The position numbers and the translations under genes are program-made. The notes beneath the pieces are model-generated. The model was not told the DNA's origin and did no database searches. It saw only the letters and a list, made by a program, of their open reading frames with translations. A stretch of DNA of 64,000 nt from Bacillota bacterium. Lineage in GTDB: Bacteria > Bacillota > Clostridia > Saccharofermentanales > DTU023. Of this stretch, positions 1 to 42,955 are shown piece after piece (the stretch's first letter is position 1; each line of letters begins with the position of its first letter). Location of the stretch: positions 1,637-65,636 of the forward strand of contig JAFAAL010000030.1 in assembly GCA_023426575.1 (NCBI GenBank). The letters run 5' to 3'.

Positions 1-195
1 AAGAATATTCTGGCCTCGGTACAGCACCTCTCCAGCCGTCGGCATGCTGGCTGCCGCGATCATATTGATCAGGGTCGTCTTGCCTGCTCCGTTCGGCCCT
101 AAGAGTCCATAGATGCCACGATCAAAACGATAGTTGAGCTCATGGATGATTTTGTTTTTACCATAAGATTTTTCGAGATGGTTCAGCTCTAACAT
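1..195 (-). CDS. ABC transporter ATP-binding protein, N-terminal 65 codons (gene runs off the left edge)
   Basis: Not in the ORF track. Reverse translation from the ATG at 193-195 gives MLELNHLEKSYGKNKIIHELNYRFDRGIYGLLGPNGAGKTTLINMIAAASMPTAGEVLYRGQNI, with Walker A GPNGAGKT. An AAGGAG RBS overlaps the upstream stop. About 38 of 64 residues are identical by eye to the N-terminus of the island ATPase 40592..41449. Confidence 0.85.
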   Translation of the reverse strand, partial: MLELNHLEKSYGKNKIIHELNYRFDRGIYGLLGPNGAGKTTLINMIAAASMPTAGEVLYRGQNIL

Positions 196-35700: not shown

Positions 35701-35952
35701 ATGGGAATTTTAGCATGGTTACTCGTAGGTGGCGTCGCTGGTTGGCTCGCTGGCCTGATCATGAAAGAAGAACGTGGACTCGTCGGTAGCATCGTCGTCG
35801 GTATCGTCGGCGCATTTATCGGTGGTGCCATCATGAACGGGATCCAGGCGCCCACGGCTGGCTTCACCGGCTTCAACGTCTATTCTGTCCTGACAGCACT
35901 TCTCGGTGCGATTATCCTGATTGCTGTCATGCGCATGATTCGCAGACACTAA
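35701..35952 (+). CDS. GlsB/YeaQ/YmgE-family small membrane protein
   Basis: AGGAGG RBS. MGILAWLLVGGVAGWLAGLIMK...VGIVGAFIGGAIMNG. 83 aa. Confidence 0.85.
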   Translation: MGILAWLLVGGVAGWLAGLIMKEERGLVGSIVVGIVGAFIGGAIMNGIQAPTAGFTGFNVYSVLTALLGAIILIAVMRMIRRH

Positions 35953-35984
35953 GCGCTGCTGGCGAGTCCACTCGAGTTCTCGTC

Positions 35985-36029
35985 GCGATCATTCTGATCG
36001 CCATCATGCGCGTTCGTCGCAGAAACTAA
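35985..36029 (+). pseudogene. Remnant of a second GlsB/YeaQ gene (last ~15 codons only)
   Basis: The segment gcgatcattctgatcgccatcatgcgcgttcgtcgcagaaactaa encodes AIILIAIMRVRRRN*. The intact gene 3' end encodes AIILIAVMRMIRRH*. About 35 of 45 nt are identical by eye. Confidence 0.45.
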
Positions 36030-36068
36030 TAGAGTCAGTAAGCCAGCTGTCGTCATAGGCAGCTTTGA

Positions 36069-36110
36069 GTCAGGGGAGAGGCCACAGGCCCCTCCCCTGA
36101 CTTCCTTCTG
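36069..36110 (+). terminator. Intrinsic terminator marking the left edge of the low-GC island
   Basis: GTCAGGGGAG-12 nt loop-CTCCCCTGAC followed by TTCCTTCTG. Confidence 0.65.
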
Positions 36111-36136
36111 ATTCAGCTCAAAGAGATGCCGCAGTA

Positions 36137-37822
36137 TTGGCAGAATGGAGACATACGCTGAAACTCTTGCTTAATTACATCTTATCACGTTATAAGCGCG
36201 ATCTTTTTATTCGCTCTTTACTGTCAATCATCATTGGCCTAAGTTCTGCTGCACTCGTATATAGTAATAAGTTGCTTTTCGATCACATCGGACGACCTAT
36301 TGTAGCTAAAAAACTATTCTATGATGTATCCATTTTTTGTGTGATACAAGTATCCGCAATACTTATTCAGTCTGTGAATAATAGAGTTAACGACTTGGGC
36401 GCAAGCAAAATAAAAAGTGATTTAGAACAAGTCTTATATCAAAAGCAGCTCAGCCTCTCACTTGAAACACTGGAAACACCTGATACACATACCTCTATCA
36501 TGTTAGCTAGAAACTATGGCATAGATGCAGTATTTTCAACCATAAATAATCTCCTATCTTTATTGAATAGCCTTATTGGCATAACATCTATTCTGTATAT
36601 TTCCATTAGCATAACAACTTCAATGTTATCGGTTATTCTCATAATACCTATTCTTTCATTATATTTGAACACTGTTGTGGATAGGAAACTGGATAAAAAT
36701 CGTGAGACTACGGCTAAACTTAAAAGAGAGCAATCATATATCAATTCTCTGGCCTTGAGTCCACAAAATAGTAGAGAGATAAAAAGTTATCTAGCCGAAG
36801 CTTTCTTCATTAATAAGCTGAGGGCTGTATTATCAAATATATTCGAAAATGAGCGCGAGCAATTTTTAACCCAAGAAAAAATGAGAATTACTCTGGCACT
36901 CTTGGAATTTATAGCTGAATTATACATAATTATGGTAGCAGTAGTACAATCCGTCTCTGATGATATGCCCTTTGGAACAATTACCATGTTTATTGCTGCC
37001 ACTCAAAGCATTAGGGCACATATTAATAGCATCTTCGTCAATTTAAGGGATATAAATCAAAACAGACTGTTCAGTAGATATTTCTTTGATCTTTTACAAC
37101 TTAATTCAGAGCAAGAAACAGGTTCACTATGCCCGCACATCCATTCTATAACGATTGATAATTTAAGTTTTACATACCCAGGAACGACCAAGAAAGTAAT
37201 AAAGAATGTAAATCTAGAACTATTTAGTGGTGACAGAATACTTCTGATCGGACCCAATGGAGTCGGAAAAAGTACTTTAGTTAAACTTTTGGCTGGACTT
37301 TACCATACATACGAGGGCTCAATAAAAATAAACGGTATAGATCTCAGAGATATCTCTATCGAGAGTTACAGAAAGAAAGTCTCTGTGTTCTTCCAGGATT
37401 ATACTAATTTTGATTTAAGCATAGAGGAAAACACATATTTTGACAGTCACATTTCAGAAGCTCAAATGAATAAGATGCGCAACTTACATGCTGAGCTTGA
37501 TCTGCAAAGAAAAATTAAAGAAAAAAACATTAAACACGGCACCCGTTTGGGGTACTGGGATGGAAGCATTGTTTTTTCTGGAGGAGAAGCTCAACGAATA
37601 GCTATAGCACGCTGTTTAGCAAAACAGGCAGACTTTTATATTTTTGATGAGATCACCTCAGCGCAGGACTCAATATCGAGGCGGAATCTCTTTAGATCAG
37701 TTTTAGTTCCTGCAGATGACATAAGGATTATGATAACCCACAATCAAGAGTTAGCATCTAAATACGCGACAAAAGTTTTTAGAATAAAAAATGGTGAGAT
37801 CTTTCCAGATTCTACACCATGA
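36137..37822 (+). CDS. ABC exporter, fused 6-TM domain plus ATPase (no C39 peptidase domain)
   Basis: 561 aa. TMD first (LFIRSLLSIIIGLSSAALVY...), then GPNGVGKSTLVKLLAG, FSGGEAQRIAIARCL and FYIFDE. TTG start; the first in-frame ATG is ~120 codons in. Convergent with the radical SAM operon. Confidence 0.8.
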   Translation: MAEWRHTLKLLLNYILSRYKRDLFIRSLLSIIIGLSSAALVYSNKLLFDHIGRPIVAKKLFYDVSIFCVIQVSAILIQSVNNRVNDLGASKIKSDLEQVLYQKQLSLSLETLETPDTHTSIMLARNYGIDAVFSTINNLLSLLNSLIGITSILYISISITTSMLSVILIIPILSLYLNTVVDRKLDKNRETTAKLKREQSYINSLALSPQNSREIKSYLAEAFFINKLRAVLSNIFENEREQFLTQEKMRITLALLEFIAELYIIMVAVVQSVSDDMPFGTITMFIAATQSIRAHINSIFVNLRDINQNRLFSRYFFDLLQLNSEQETGSLCPHIHSITIDNLSFTYPGTTKKVIKNVNLELFSGDRILLIGPNGVGKSTLVKLLAGLYHTYEGSIKINGIDLRDISIESYRKKVSVFFQDYTNFDLSIEENTYFDSHISEAQMNKMRNLHAELDLQRKIKEKNIKHGTRLGYWDGSIVFSGGEAQRIAIARCLAKQADFYIFDEITSAQDSISRRNLFRSVLVPADDIRIMITHNQELASKYATKVFRIKNGEIFPDSTP

Positions 37823-37903
37823 AGCTGCCCCCTATCGCTAAAATTGCTGAACAAGCCATCTCATACCCAAAATGCTAATGATACCGTGGATGCGGAGGTT
37901 CAT

Positions 37904-39019
37904 TTAGTGCTTAAAACACGCTCTACTTCTGAAATACGATAAAGATAGACCTATACAAATCCAAATCAAAGAAGCAATACCGTGAAAAATTAAAGGATTC
38001 ATATGTCCAGTCCCAAAAATTCTTATCCCTAAAATGCTCCTATCAATATCTAATCCATAGGAAAGCACACCCCCAGGCAAGAACATCATAAGCTGTCTCA
38101 ATCCCAGAAGAAACTTGGGCAAACTGCCTATAAGCCTAAAATACTGTGGCAGGAATATTATAGATAAAGCATAGAATAGAGAAATCGAAGCTGAACTAGC
38201 TGCTTGTGAAAAACATTGCGATAACGCTAGCTGGAAGAATATAAAGGAAAGAAAATCAATGAGCGCAACAAGAACAAACATAAGAATATAATCGATAAGG
38301 GAGGCCTTATAAGAGGCAGTTAAGATATTTATATGCGAGGCTGGATTATCTATATTGTTTAGGCCAATATGACCATAAATCCAGAGAGTAGAAATATATA
38401 CAATAATTGGAAGTATAAAAAATACCAACCCAAAAATCAACTGAGTTAAGAGCTTCACAGGAAAGAGTTTCTGTTTAATCCTTTCTGCCCCGGATAGAAT
38501 TTTCCTGCAATGTATAATATCGTATGTATATCCAGAGGCAAAAACAAATGGTGAAACAATGAACATCCACTTGAGAAGAATGAAGAAGTTCTTTGTAATA
38601 TCTGCCAGCTGTGGATCATGAAACTCGGACAACTCACTAATTCTCTGCTCAAATTTGATCTTGCATTTAGGATCTTTTCTAGATGAGATCGTTTTGTTCT
38701 CCTGGCAGACGCTAGACTTCAACTTATTTAATAGCTGCAGGTCATTAAACTGGTCTATATAAGACGTTAAACAGTAGTATTTACTCCTGTTTTCAGGCCT
38801 CAAATGAAATGCCATATCGTGATTACTAATGTATTCATCCGCCTCCAAGCTTTTCTCAACATTAAGACTTTGGCCTATGTTAGGGCATGGAGCACTATAG
38901 CCTGTAAATTTGATTTCTCTAGAAGTTTTGATGGCAAGATAAGTGGAAATGGCAGAAATCAAAATCAAAAACGCTATTGCGAAATAATTAAATGTCTTCT
39001 TAACTTCTATTAGAAACAT
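37904..39019 (-). CDS. ABC-2-like permease paralog 2 (polytopic membrane protein)
   Basis: 371 aa: N-terminal TM helix, a ~130-aa extracytoplasmic segment, then ~5 TM helices. This is the same architecture as 41452..42558 and shares its KILS..R..K segment (HCRKILSGAERIKQKL vs MRMKKILSNTRRGLKKL). Last gene of the operon, 17 nt after the rSAM stop. Confidence 0.55.
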   Translation of the reverse strand: MFLIEVKKTFNYFAIAFLILISAISTYLAIKTSREIKFTGYSAPCPNIGQSLNVEKSLEADEYISNHDMAFHLRPENRSKYYCLTSYIDQFNDLQLLNKLKSSVCQENKTISSRKDPKCKIKFEQRISELSEFHDPQLADITKNFFILLKWMFIVSPFVFASGYTYDIIHCRKILSGAERIKQKLFPVKLLTQLIFGLVFFILPIIVYISTLWIYGHIGLNNIDNPASHINILTASYKASLIDYILMFVLVALIDFLSFIFFQLALSQCFSQAASSASISLFYALSIIFLPQYFRLIGSLPKFLLGLRQLMMFLPGGVLSYGLDIDRSILGIRIFGTGHMNPLIFHGIASLIWICIGLSLSYFRSRACFKH

Positions 39020-39036
39020 TGTATTCTCGTATCCTT

Positions 39037-40590
39037 CTACGCTCTAATTAAGTTGTTGAGTTTCATCAATTCATCTGGGTTATTCTCCAGGATTTCATGA
39101 TATAACATAAGACATTCTTTGACATGCTCCCTTTCAGAAGTGCAAAAATGTCTTTTTTTATCGAGATTAAATCCTTCATCAGTATATGAAGACGTATAAC
39201 AAATCCCGCATAGTAAGTTTGCCCAACATTTTGAGCAGTCTTCTTTTGAAGCATTTGCATAATCCTGCACGTATTTTTCCCTTATCAACTCGATATCGAA
39301 TCCTCTATCCACATGTCCGATAGAGGGAGAATCTCCGATTCTTTCGCAAACCTTAAAATCCCCATTCACAGTTACGTAAAGACGTCTAACACCAGGCACA
39401 CAACAACCATTAAATGGGATCATATTGCTGACGGAACAATCAAGACATAGTCTGCGATGAATGATATCAAGCATCTGAATCACTGCATTATGGTTTATTG
39501 AATTTATTGAACTTGATATACGAAGCATATCCTGTGATTTAAGCCACTCAGTTATCGGATTTAAGAAGACTGCATTTCCTTCACTATCAATAGTCAAATT
39601 CAAGTCACTAAGAATTTCCTCATCCTCATCCACACTCCCTTCGTTTGGCAGTGTCAAATCGATGCTGCTATTAATTGAAAAAGAAATATTCTTATAGAAC
39701 TCAGCAATTTTTTCCAACGAACTCGTCCGATATGGCGGCGCAAACACACCATTAATTGATATACCCTCTAATCCCTTTTCCCTATATGCATCAGTAATAA
39801 GCTCATAGCCTCGCATACAATCGTCAAAAGAGCCTCTTCCATCACAGTATATTCTCCAGCTGTCATGAATATCACGTGGACCATCTATACTGCATAGGAT
39901 ATTACAATTACCGAGACTCGCAAAGTACTGCGCCATTTCCTCATTCATTAAAGTCAGATTGGTAGTAAATGAATACCTTATGTCCTTGTCATAAATTTTA
40001 GCTTTTGCGTTACAATAGTCGATAATATTTCTCATCAAATTAAATTTGATAAGCGGTTCTCCTCCGTAAAAACTAATAGATAACTCTTTCCCAGAATGTG
40101 CGAATGCAAATTCCACTGCTTTAATAGCAGTTACAAGTAACATTTCTTCATTTCCAAAGTTTCTATTTGATTTGAACTCATCGTGATAAATACAATATTT
40201 GCAGCGCAGATTGCAACTCTCTGTAAGCTCCAAAATAAGTTGGGTAACATTATTCTCTAAAATCGATTCCAATTTCTCATAGTGAGATAGTGAATATAAA
40301 TCCTTTAATCCACCACCTAAGAGTAATCCTTCTTCAACTATAATACTGATAAATCCTCTTTCGAAGAGTCGATCTTTCAAAGTGGTCCAATTAGCGTCGA
40401 TCTTCTGTTCGCCACAACAATAAGCAAAAAACGCGCGCTCGTCATCTTCCTCAATGAGCACAACCTTACCGGAGCCACTATCATAGAAGTAGTCATTAGT
40501 TTTAGTGCTAAATAAAATCCCTTTAGACTTTAACTCCTCATCCGATAAACCTTCAAGTGCTATGAGGAAATGCGCTAGGCATGTATCCAT
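39037..40590 (-). CDS. Radical SAM / SPASM-domain peptide maturase candidate
   Basis: CNLRCKYC (CxxxCxxC, residues 126-133; nt 40192..40215), SFYGGEPL, and a C-terminal auxiliary-cluster region GCCVPGVRRLYVTVNGDFKVC ... CSKCWANLLCGIC ... HFC. A ~115-aa N-terminal extension precedes the core. 517 aa. Confidence 0.85.
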   Translation of the reverse strand: MDTCLAHFLIALEGLSDEELKSKGILFSTKTNDYFYDSGSGKVVLIEEDDERAFFAYCCGEQKIDANWTTLKDRLFERGFISIIVEEGLLLGGGLKDLYSLSHYEKLESILENNVTQLILELTESCNLRCKYCIYHDEFKSNRNFGNEEMLLVTAIKAVEFAFAHSGKELSISFYGGEPLIKFNLMRNIIDYCNAKAKIYDKDIRYSFTTNLTLMNEEMAQYFASLGNCNILCSIDGPRDIHDSWRIYCDGRGSFDDCMRGYELITDAYREKGLEGISINGVFAPPYRTSSLEKIAEFYKNISFSINSSIDLTLPNEGSVDEDEEILSDLNLTIDSEGNAVFLNPITEWLKSQDMLRISSSINSINHNAVIQMLDIIHRRLCLDCSVSNMIPFNGCCVPGVRRLYVTVNGDFKVCERIGDSPSIGHVDRGFDIELIREKYVQDYANASKEDCSKCWANLLCGICYTSSYTDEGFNLDKKRHFCTSEREHVKECLMLYHEILENNPDELMKLNNLIRA

Positions 40591-40591
40591 T

Positions 40592-41449
40592 TCAATTCTC
40601 CATTAAGTATACATACAAGTCTTCTAGGCGAGGGTTAACTTGTGTCGCATTTTTTATAGGCCTTGATGATACAAATCTTACTTTTGCATTGTGTGATTGA
40701 TCATTATAAACAGAGATTATCTTACAAGATTTAGCTAGAGTATCTACCTCTCTAGTATCCAAGCTAATCTCCCATACCATCTTAGAAAGACCTCTAAGGA
40801 GCTCATCTTCATAGCCCGAAGCAAGTATCTCCCCAGATCTGAGAAAGATAATCTGTTCAGCAATCTGCTCTATGTCAGGAACAATATGCGTAGAATATAT
40901 GACAATTCTTTGCTTGGAGAGTTGAGATATTAGATTCCTAAGATTAATCCTTTCCATGGGATCCAATCCAGAAGTTGGCTCATCTAATATAAGCACCTTA
41001 GGGTCATTTAACAGAGCCTGTATAAGACATAGACGTCTTTTCATTCCACCAGAAAACTCACCACACTTCTTATCCAAATGAGCCTTAAGATTACAAATCT
41101 CCGCAAGCATATCAATTCTATCATCCATAGATCTGCGTGATAGACCTTTAAGTTCCGCAAAATATCGCAAATAATCGATCGCCTTTAATTGAGGGTATAT
41201 ACAATCTTCTTGTGGAAGATAGCCCAAGTGCCTATAATACCCTGCACCTGCTTTGGCAATATTCTGCGTTCGCCACCTCACTTCACCCGCACTAGGCGCG
41301 CTAGCTGCAGCTAAAATATTGATAAGACTTGTCTTACCTGCACCATTAGGGCCTAATAAACCATATATACCTGAGACAAAATCAAAGCTGAACTCTTTAA
41401 CAGCTGTATTCTTTCTATATTTCTTAGAAACGTTCACTGCACTAAGCAT
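40592..41449 (-). CDS. ABC transporter ATP-binding protein (ABC-2 / immunity-type)
   Basis: ATG 2 nt after the permease stop, with GGGAGG upstream. GLLGPNGAGKTSLINILA, FSGGMKRRLCLIQAL and LILDEPTSGLD. The stop is 1 nt before the rSAM ATG. Confidence 0.85.
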   Translation of the reverse strand: MLSAVNVSKKYRKNTAVKEFSFDFVSGIYGLLGPNGAGKTSLINILAAASAPSAGEVRWRTQNIAKAGAGYYRHLGYLPQEDCIYPQLKAIDYLRYFAELKGLSRRSMDDRIDMLAEICNLKAHLDKKCGEFSGGMKRRLCLIQALLNDPKVLILDEPTSGLDPMERINLRNLISQLSKQRIVIYSTHIVPDIEQIAEQIIFLRSGEILASGYEDELLRGLSKMVWEISLDTREVDTLAKSCKIISVYNDQSHNAKVRFVSSRPIKNATQVNPRLEDLYVYLMEN

Positions 41450-41451
41450 AG

Positions 41452-42558
41452 TTAATGGACCTCCCATGCCCTAACAACTCTCGTAGTCAGGATAAGATTG
41501 CCTACTATTACAAATATTGCTACTAAAACGTGCTTAACGATCCTCAATATGATGTTGGCATGAGTCGAGATATTGGCACCCGTAAGTTCCTCTGGTATGT
41601 GTTTTACAACGGCCATAAGATTAGAGGGGAAGACTAATGGTAAGAAGTCAAATTGTGCTAAGAAAAATGGAATGATGATGATGATGAGAAGTCCCCCAAA
41701 CAAAGATTGCAGTGAAGAGGAAGAAACGGATGATATCATAACAATCGTTGAAGCAAGTACGAACATAGCAAGAGCATAAAAAAAGAGGGTTAATATAAAC
41801 AGCAATCCCATTGAAGGATCAACAATGTAGGGACGCATCATCACCGTTGATATTTTCTCTTTAAATAGGCTCGACTCATGTGACGAAAGCACATTTTTTA
41901 TGAAGTAAACCGCACAAGGAACGAGTGCACACAAAGAGAATATTCCTGATAGGACAAAAAATTTGTCCCATATAAGTTTCTTCAGTCCCCTCCGGGTATT
42001 ACTCAGTATTTTCTTCATGCGCATTGTTCTTTCTACAGTCATGATTGGAAATGACACAAGGACAAGCGCACCCAAAAGAAGATACATGAGAGGAAATTGG
42101 TTATCACCAAAAATGAGAAAAAAAGTCTCCCACCGTGTAGACGAAAAAAACCTCAAATCCTTGTAAAAATTATCCAGCATGCTGATCCTATCATTTGATA
42201 AGGTGTCAGTATTCGTGCTGTTGATCCCTGATAATTGTATTTCATCATAGATCTTATTACGGATCTGAGATGCCTCTACATATCGTTCAGATTTGATATT
42301 TTTTAATTTATGAATGGCTTCTTCTCTATTTTGTGCATCATTGAAAATCGGTGTAAGAGGATTCTCTTGCCTGATTTCACTTTCCTCATAAGCGCCTTCA
42401 ACCGATAAATAGTCGGACTCTTCAAGTAAATTAACATAATCCAAGTTCGCAAGAGCATGGTAGGCGTAAGCGGCTAAACAAAAGCTCAGTATAAAGAGCA
42501 CAACTCTTATTTTTGAATGAAATAAAATCCATAGCTCTTTTTTTCGACCGATATTCAT
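41452..42558 (-). CDS. ABC-2-like permease paralog 1
   Basis: 368 aa: TM1 (VVLFILSFCLAAYAY), an extracytoplasmic ~130 aa, then ~5 TM helices. Starts 8 nt after the precursor stop. Homologous by eye to the disrupted gene at 206..1292. Confidence 0.6.
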   Translation of the reverse strand: MNIGRKKELWILFHSKIRVVLFILSFCLAAYAYHALANLDYVNLLEESDYLSVEGAYEESEIRQENPLTPIFNDAQNREEAIHKLKNIKSERYVEASQIRNKIYDEIQLSGINSTNTDTLSNDRISMLDNFYKDLRFFSSTRWETFFLIFGDNQFPLMYLLLGALVLVSFPIMTVERTMRMKKILSNTRRGLKKLIWDKFFVLSGIFSLCALVPCAVYFIKNVLSSHESSLFKEKISTVMMRPYIVDPSMGLLFILTLFFYALAMFVLASTIVMISSVSSSSLQSLFGGLLIIIIIPFFLAQFDFLPLVFPSNLMAVVKHIPEELTGANISTHANIILRIVKHVLVAIFVIVGNLILTTRVVRAWEVH

Positions 42559-42566
42559 ATGCTAAT

Positions 42567-42773
42567 TTACTTTTTACGCGCTAAACCTAGATTGGCATCC
42601 TTATTATCGAAATTGCCTTCAAAACACGAACAAAAACAAGTTCCAAAAGTAACTGTAGACTTATTTCGCGTGCCTGAATATGCGCTGTTGGTATTACATA
42701 TACATCTGCACGTCCATATGAGACCTTGTGGTTCATTGTTTTCATTTGTAGCAATAGGTTTTAATATCTTCAT
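42567..42773 (-). CDS. Cys-rich 68-aa peptide, candidate RiPP precursor
   Basis: AGGAGG lies 7 nt upstream of the ATG. I re-translated it codon by codon: MKILKPIATNENNEPQGLIWTCRCICNTNSAYSGTRNKSTVTFGTCFCSCFEGNFDNKDANLGLARKK. Six Cys residues at 22/24/26 and 46/48/50. First gene of the operon containing the rSAM/SPASM enzyme. Confidence 0.65.
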   Translation of the reverse strand: MKILKPIATNENNEPQGLIWTCRCICNTNSAYSGTRNKSTVTFGTCFCSCFEGNFDNKDANLGLARKK

Positions 42774-42801
42774 AATTAAGCCTCCTTACTGAGTTGATTT
42801 G

Positions 42802-42830
42802 AATCTACACGATTTTTAAATATGTGTCAA
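42802..42830 (-). promoter_or_regulatory. Sigma-70-type promoter candidate for the precursor operon
   Basis: On the minus strand: TTGACA (42825-42830), a 17-nt spacer, then TAGATT (42802-42807). The predicted TSS is ~15-20 nt upstream of the RBS. Confidence 0.4.
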
Positions 42831-42894
42831 TATCTGTTGGAATTTCCTCATCATTCACTTCCTTACGATCTCCTTAGCATTTCCTATACTTTAA

Positions 42895-42931
42895 AAGTCA
42901 AAAAAGGGGGAACTGCGAACAGTTCCCCCTT
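42895..42931 (-). terminator. Intrinsic terminator of rplL (right edge of the island)
   Basis: 12-bp stem AAGGGGGAACTG/CAGTTCCCCCTT with a TTCG loop, then TTTTGACTTTT. Lies 24 nt after the rplL stop. Confidence 0.8.
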
Positions 42932-42955
42932 TGCTTCCATAAAAATTGAAAGATC

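Follow-up and report, generated by a model that had tools for sequence, protein, structure and literature searches.

The small cysteine-rich peptide gene located just downstream of rplL in the analyzed 64-kb stretch of DNA from a Bacillota bacterium (hereafter, the window) encodes, as judged from comparative sequence analysis, what is probably the precursor of a radical SAM (rSAM)-modified RiPP from the RumC/CA_C0660 superfamily of (putative) sactipeptide bacteriocins. The gene itself is real and almost certainly specifies the precursor of a radical-SAM cross-linked antimicrobial-type peptide; it is conserved and always linked to a gene for a RumMC-like rSAM/SPASM enzyme. The encoded peptide is a divergent member of a catalogued family related to ruminococcin C (RumC) and not a new kind of peptide.

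The precursor gene and its operon

The reconstructed gene cluster comprises the peptide gene, a putative permease gene, an ABC ATPase gene, the rSAM/SPASM enzyme gene and a second putative permease gene, in this order, with a convergent ABC exporter gene beyond them. The following features were assigned:

42802..42830, minus strand: promoter-like TTGACA-17-TAGATT, between the strong rplL terminator hairpin and the ribosome-binding site of the peptide gene
42781..42786, minus strand: ribosome-binding site AGGAGG, visible in the sequence itself, 7 nt upstream of the ATG
42567..42773, minus strand: precursor peptide gene, 68 aa; putative leader at approximately residues 1-19, core from W20
41452..42558, minus strand: membrane protein of 368 aa in which a loop of ~115 aa separates an N-terminal TM from five further TMs; putative ABC-2-type permease subunit
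40592..41467, minus strand: ABC ATPase of the DrrA/ABC-2 type, assigned by family models and relatives
39037..40590, minus strand: RumMC-like rSAM/SPASM peptide maturase, 517 aa, with a predicted N-terminal RRE-like domain
37904..39019, minus strand: 371-aa membrane protein of 1+5 TM topology; putative second ABC-2-type permease subunit
36137..37822, plus strand: convergent fused ABC exporter (TMD plus NBD), 561 aa, no C39 domain, within the low-GC island
36105..42900: low-GC island of 6.8 kb (34-40% GC vs. 53-60% in the flanks) that holds the whole cluster

Direct translation of the precursor ORF (42567..42773, minus strand) gives the 68-aa product MKILKPIATNENNEPQGLIWTCRCICNTNSAYSGTRNKSTVTFGTCFCSCFEGNFDNKDANLGLARKK, which contains TCRCIC at residues 21-26 and TCFCSC at residues 45-50 (CxCxC proper at 22-26 and 46-50) and ends in ARKK; its stop codon is separated by 8 nt (attagcat) from the ATG of the next ORF at 42558. 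The length, the ribosome-binding site with its spacer, the intergenic gap, the two cysteine motifs and the C-terminus had all been described in an earlier, sequence-only reading of this DNA and were confirmed here, as was the tight coupling to an rSAM/SPASM enzyme, which is borne out by the gene layout and by the Cys motifs of the enzyme. The promoter-like site matches 10 of 12 consensus positions and has the top score in the region; its assignment goes no further than this agreement, because just as many such sites are expected in the shuffled region. Each triad is followed by 18 residues of prospective acceptor sequence, and Asn, Asp and Thr abound in the core. The precursor has neither a Gly-Gly leader motif nor a Pfam match. 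CxCxC is present in four of the window's 821 stop-to-stop segments with a length of 40 aa or more, and only the precursor ORF has two copies, so the double motif is more than a chance occurrence. An antisense ORF of 77 aa (42559..42792, plus strand) spans the whole precursor gene; nothing was found in its support, and most likely it exists only as a by-product of coding on the opposite strand.

The two 24-residue halves that open with TCxCxC had been read as a triad duplicated in register at a distance of exactly 24 residues. This description holds for the Cys motif of the window peptide; the offset varies between 24, 25 and 26 in its relatives, and the halves are otherwise unlike each other. 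Beyond TCxCxC they have one identical residue in common (an Asn), so that they constitute no recognizable sequence duplication, and an internal duplication of 24-residue halves was rejected.

Both membrane proteins lack Pfam matches, and the 368-aa protein also lacks an NCBIfam match; the latter protein is 21-25% identical to the equivalent genes in four related loci (L001, L003, L004, and L006), and the 371-aa protein is homologous to the gene that follows the rSAM gene in L001 and L095 (22.5% identity over ~350 aa, E ~1e-17). One N-terminal TM, a large first loop and five TMs make up the customary layout of ABC-2 permeases. The ABC ATPase, which gene callers start at 41449 in the metagenome copies (giving 285 aa), matches the drrA, GldA, and lantibiotic-protection models, all at sub-cut-off scores; it is 48-52% identical to the ATPases of related clusters and 44% identical to that of locus L101, which adjoins permeases with weak PF12698 matches. 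The convergent fused ABC exporter is the probable peptide exporter and is only 21-28% identical to the exporters in related clusters. A 5' truncation of this gene at the island edge was considered and rejected, as its N-terminus resembles the normal start of a transmembrane domain.

The low-GC island was acquired horizontally. The host GC content is ~56%, and the island is bounded by the terminator hairpins of a GlsB-like gene (36068..36102) and of rplL (42903..42932); its ends carry neither direct nor inverted repeats. The earlier observation that the cluster combines the absence of a Gly-Gly leader with the absence of a C39 domain or protease proved accurate for the island and for the entire 64-kb window, where we found no C39, C39_2, or M16 peptidases. 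No regulator was identified in the window, and no Rfam family reached the threshold anywhere in it, ribosomal leaders included.

Several other elements of the window deserve mention. Just left of the island, at 35960..36030, the 3' end of the GlsB/YeaQ-like gene (35701..35952, plus strand) recurs in degenerate form; this second copy reads '...ILIAIMRVRRRN*', follows the gene's own '...ILIAVMRMIRRH*', and may represent a scar of the island insertion. The ribosomal protein L10 gene (43359..44090, minus strand) encodes an unusual Ala/Glu/Pro-rich C-terminal tail of ~80 aa. At the left end of the window, tblastn matches to a permease-like protein from locus L095 (461..1292, minus strand; two adjacent pieces, possibly frameshifted) and to an ABC ATPase (4..123, minus strand) suggest a second ABC-2-type transporter.

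Distribution and conservation of the double-triad peptides

The double-triad peptides form a rare subfamily. A single-sequence, word-indexed search with the peptide returned nothing beyond one 99% identical copy. An exhaustive HMMER scan of 1.84 billion representatives yielded five true peptide relatives and missed the peptide of locus L101, which was reached via its enzyme only. When 5.8 billion proteins were searched with a profile, six clusters emerged, and two scans of the JGI metagenomes with peptide patterns produced no matches. Gene calls on six independent metagenome contigs include the exact window peptide, in each case after rplL and with no nucleotide difference.

Further relatives were reached through the nearest enzymes: double-triad peptides of 64-70 aa adjoin rSAMs sharing 43-45% identity with the window enzyme in loci L003, L006, L095-L097, and L101, and occur at contig ends in two additional loci. 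The gene orders are as follows:

L003, L006: peptide, ATPase, rSAM, two membrane proteins, C39_2-like protein, exporter
L095-L097: peptide, membrane protein, ATPase, rSAM, membrane protein, exporter
L101: exporter, rSAM, peptide, M16 peptidase, ATPase, two ABC-2 permeases
L098, L099: double-triad peptides at contig ends, followed by an ATPase in L098 and by a membrane protein in L099

The L095-L097 clusters match the window in gene order and likewise have no protease; transposase and resolvase genes adjoin them. Upstream of the L101 cluster are agrB and a LytTR two-component system. Two related clusters are lower in GC than their flanks, namely L099 (GCA_004556925.1; 37.6 vs. 51%) and L006 (44 vs. 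52%); together with the transposase and resolvase genes beside L095-L097, this suggests horizontal movement of the cluster type.

In an alignment of seven peptides with 34-52% identity, the invariant positions are M1, P6, all six Cys, G44, N57, and N61. The sequence-only reading had made its case depend on conservation of the small ORF next to orthologous rSAM genes; such peptides were found there in the related loci, and since they adjoin the rSAMs mentioned above and retain all six Cys, the comparison favors the ORF. As a separate observation, two independent samples (L004:2140-2342 and L005:556-747) contain a double-CxCxC precursor that is frameshifted near codon 16; the shifted frame still reads WFGKCNCICHLGTAYEGT...CRCSCYEGNDDNNNANHSLAFNK, and an intact version exists as P0144.

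Relationship to the CA_C0660 family

The only model matched by the window peptide is NF035954 (CA_C0660 family putative sactipeptide bacteriocin), with 28.8 bits and an E-value of 9.5e-7; the alignment pairs peptide residues 1-65 with positions 1-61 of the 64-position model. This score falls below the curated cut-off of 60 bits, whereas true members reach 92-102 bits. All six closest relatives match NF035954 too, and the set including the window peptide scores 25-37 bits. A profile-profile comparison by hhalign between the peptide family and the true CA_C0660 members gave a probability of 96.8% (E 2.7e-10). By comparison, the RumC peptide model NF035950 was absent from the NCBIfam matches of the peptide at E<=1, and the peptide family profile had no match among PDB chains.

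True CA_C0660 members are exemplified by locus L088 of Clostridium felsineum, where six tandem precursors scoring 92-102 bits are accompanied by an exporter, an M16 peptidase, and a two-component system, as in the RumC regulon. An alignment of 16 sequences from the window subfamily and CA_C0660 presents a continuum, with a M(I)K-x-x-x-P leader start, a second cluster that is either CxC or CxCxC, and an Asn-rich 'N-x-N-A-N' tail; P6, C22, C24, and C26 are invariant throughout. The window peptide thus has in common with CA_C0660 the MKxxxP leader start and the invariant first CxCxC, and in both cases the adjacent enzyme is RumMC-like at a sub-cut-off score (511 bits in L088). The differences are that most CA_C0660 members have a mere CxC as the second cluster where the window peptide has CxCxC, and that CA_C0660 clusters, unlike the window, contain multiple precursor copies as well as an M16 peptidase and a two-component system.

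The duplicated CxCxC triad had earlier been put down as unrecognized, a view that did not survive this comparison. The first CxCxC is invariant across the NF035954 family, and one bona fide C. felsineum member (L088:3085-3285, 92 bits) has CxCxC at 21-25 and 45-49, that is, with the same 24-residue offset, plus a seventh Cys, so the double CxCxC was already catalogued. CxCxC as a donor motif had likewise been catalogued, as had the superfamily of the precursor and the family of the enzyme.

The rSAM/SPASM maturase

The enzyme encoded in the operon contains the motif set of the RumMC family, namely CX3CX2C at 126-133 (C126/C130/C133) and a seven-Cys SPASM region for two auxiliary clusters; its SPASM-type Cys at 396/397, 415, 452, 455, 461, 464, and 483 are invariant in 12 relatives. 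Its top model is NF035951 (RumMC sactipeptide maturase), with 434.7 bits and residues 15-513 aligned to positions 8-506 of the 510-position model. The score misses the curated cut-off of 720 bits, as do those of the true CA_C0660-cluster enzymes (511 and 535 bits). The next models are CcpM (267.6 bits, cut-off 500), PapB (142 bits), and the SCIFF maturase (125 bits), and sulfatase maturase models reach 60-71 bits only. The earlier proposal of a precursor-type ORF coupled to a thioether-forming (sacti/ranthi) rSAM/SPASM maturase is supported.

The closest solved structure, both by sequence (1.2e-31) and by fold, is CteB, the thioether-forming peptide maturase of the SCIFF system; the fold match extends over the full length (~500 columns). 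In the AlphaFold model of the enzyme, which was built with 12 sequences and has a mean pLDDT of 78, the N-terminal domain consists of strands 24-28, 33-37, and 43-46 followed by helices (pLDDT 83-91), and is predicted to be an RRE-type leader-binding module. A stand-alone 193-aa protein encoded in a related locus (L001:1052-1633) is 40% identical to residues 22-150 of the window enzyme and therefore resembles an N-terminal RRE-like domain that occurs on its own; L001 also encodes a further set of ATPase and permease.

Neither the window subfamily nor CA_C0660 is characterized in the literature that we searched, where the single text match to CA_C0660-type peptides was a transcriptome study and no experimental paper on them was found. 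The thioether chemistry of the window peptide is deduced entirely from enzyme homology. The same enzyme-peptide pair might instead attach the Cys sulfurs to the side chains of Asn, Asp, or Thr at their beta- or gamma-carbons and give a ranthipeptide, which we consider unlikely. Asn, Asp, and Thr are the acceptors in ranthipeptides, and the core is rich in all three, with N57 and N61 invariant. CteB, the best solved relative, comes from the SCIFF system, and the models that match the enzyme include that of the ranthipeptide maturase PapB. Moreover, enzyme similarity separates the two chemistries poorly, as full-length similarity gives no clean division between sactisynthases and ranthisynthases (PMC10288494). 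However, the RumMC sactisynthase model covers the full length of the enzyme and exceeds the PapB and SCIFF scores threefold, the families to which the precursor shows homology are curated as putative sactipeptides, and Asn16 of RumC1 is itself an alpha-carbon acceptor. These arguments favor alpha-carbon linkages and hence the sactipeptide reading of the precursor.

Comparison with characterized and curated systems

The best family match of the window enzyme, at full length, is the RumMC model, which points to the RumC system of Ruminococcus gnavus E1 (precursors RumC1-5, maturases RumMc1/2). We take the window precursor to resemble RumC1 in its size, in a leader of ~19-20 aa, and in an aromatic residue just before the first Cys, and presumably also in the presence of two Cys clusters, each followed by an acceptor stretch, and of an Asn-rich C-terminus with a 'NAN' motif; the AGPAY hinge of RumC is presumably missing. 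Both clusters have ABC immunity-type and exporter genes. In contrast to RumC, which has four Cys arranged as CxC and CxxxC, the window peptide has six (CxCxC twice), and its cluster lacks both an M16 peptidase (RumPc) and a two-component system and encodes just one precursor. The RumC1 core opens with CxC, and its sactionines formed by RumMc1 are C3-N16 and C5-A12 in hairpin one, and C22-K42 and C26-R34 in hairpin two (PMC6760926).

Three other groups of Cys-rich RiPPs were compared. StsA from Streptomyces sparsogenes (CxCxCx4GxGxG) has experimentally proven nested sactionines C2-G15, C4-G13, and C6-G11 in a hairpin (PMC10288494); this established CxCxC substrate for three sactionines, like the CxC that opens the RumC1 core, speaks against the earlier view of the duplicated CxCxC triad as unrecognized. 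The StsA/StsB/StsC system has the CxCxC donor triad in common with the window peptide and differs in its MftC-like enzyme, separate RRE protein, GxGxG acceptors, single triad, and actinobacterial origin; no relationship between StsA and the window peptide was detectable. The SCIFF system (ScfB/CteB) offers six Cys in a short peptide and the closest solved structure, whereas its Cys spacing is unlike that of the window peptide, which had no SCIFF match. The characterized SCIFF linkage is to the gamma-carbon of Thr. Finally, Apre_1838/CLOSPO_01332 (TIGR04067) and CcpM/CLI_3235 (TIGR04068/TIGR04065) represent curated Cys-rich precursors with alternating Cys, such as CxC...CxxCxCxC (TIGR04067) and ACACNCNLCICTSC. 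An enzyme-alignment scan of genome contigs gave relatives of up to 34% identity among the matches listed, with neither the genome of the window nor its close clade among them, and these were used as comparators only; the TIGR04067 and CLI_3235/CcpM-type precursors adjoin enzymes 26-34% identical to that of the window (again among the matches listed). Their precursor models do not match the window peptide and have marginal matches in two of its relatives.

With respect to function, it is improbable that the product is a signaling or regulatory RiPP rather than a bacteriocin, with the ABC systems serving for export only. The window contains neither a regulator nor a dedicated immunity protein besides the ABC-2 set, and the agrB and LytTR genes next to the L101 cluster would fit such a role; but an ABC-2 ATPase with two permeases is the typical self-protection set of bacteriocin clusters, the curated families are named as bacteriocins, though putatively, and RumC, the only characterized relative, is a potent anti-Gram-positive antibiotic (PMC6760926).

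The weakest alternative, a chance or decayed ORF beside an enzyme that acts on another substrate such as a sulfatase or a cofactor, could draw on the missing Pfam match, the frameshifted copy in L004/L005, and database entries that call some homologous enzymes 'anaerobic sulfatase-maturating enzyme', but it is highly improbable given the strong ribosome-binding site, the sole occurrence of two CxCxC motifs in this window ORF, the low scores of sulfatase maturase models relative to RumMC, and the predicted RRE-like domain of the enzyme, and both a spurious ORF and a non-peptide substrate are effectively excluded by the co-conservation of the peptide, with its six invariant Cys, and the adjacent enzyme.

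Proposed maturation and structure of the product

For the precursor of a RumC-like sactipeptide, we propose the following maturation route. The leader (approximately residues 1-19, with the conserved MKxxxP start) would dock onto the RRE-like domain of the enzyme, whose 5'-deoxyadenosyl radicals would abstract hydrogen from the acceptor residues, to which the six Cys sulfurs would then be joined. Up to six thioethers may result, most likely to alpha-carbons as in RumC, and the bridges would form two successive hairpins with three nested bridges in each. The ATPase and the two permeases may provide self-protection of the producer and/or peptide export, and the convergent exporter (36137..37822) would secrete the peptide. 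Leader removal, if any, might fall to a protease from the environment or to one whose gene lies elsewhere. Host trypsin performs the final activating cleavage of RumC, which thus serves as a precedent for an outside leader protease. Some related clusters encode M16 (L101) or C39_2-like (L003, L006) proteins, while the clusters with the closest architecture (L095-L097) encode neither.

A tentative map of hairpin 2 connects C50 to N57, C48 to N61, and C46 to A65, which would reproduce the +7/+13 geometry of RumC1 hairpin 1 with one extra rung. The mapped acceptors are invariant or near-invariant non-Cys positions, and seven of the nine peptides of the double-triad subfamily have N/N/A there (+7 from the third Cys of triad 2, +13 from the second, and +19 from the first); the exceptions are P0128 (N/N/V) and L101 (N/N/D). 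The CA_C0660 member L088a does not fit, and the spacing of the conserved Asn is off by one in L103-type relatives. In hairpin 1, the same geometry would select S33, N37, and V41, which are less conserved positions. This bridge map is a tentative extrapolation from RumC1. The complete picture, in which the mature product carries six sactionines in two three-rung hairpins and derives from a minimal, protease-free mobile cluster with a leader that is either cleaved outside or retained, is possible, though we would not regard it as the expected outcome.

Implications for the ruminococcin C scaffold

RumC is a clinically interesting anti-clostridial antibiotic scaffold. To our knowledge, characterized sactipeptides have four bridges at most, and a six-sactionine product would, if real, be the most densely cross-linked sactipeptide. 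The window peptide adds no new principle. If the prediction holds, it and its few relatives would carry six thioether staples on the ruminococcin C scaffold instead of four, and the peptide would offer a compact one-peptide/one-enzyme substrate for studying the order in which one sactisynthase makes six ring closures on alternating cysteines.
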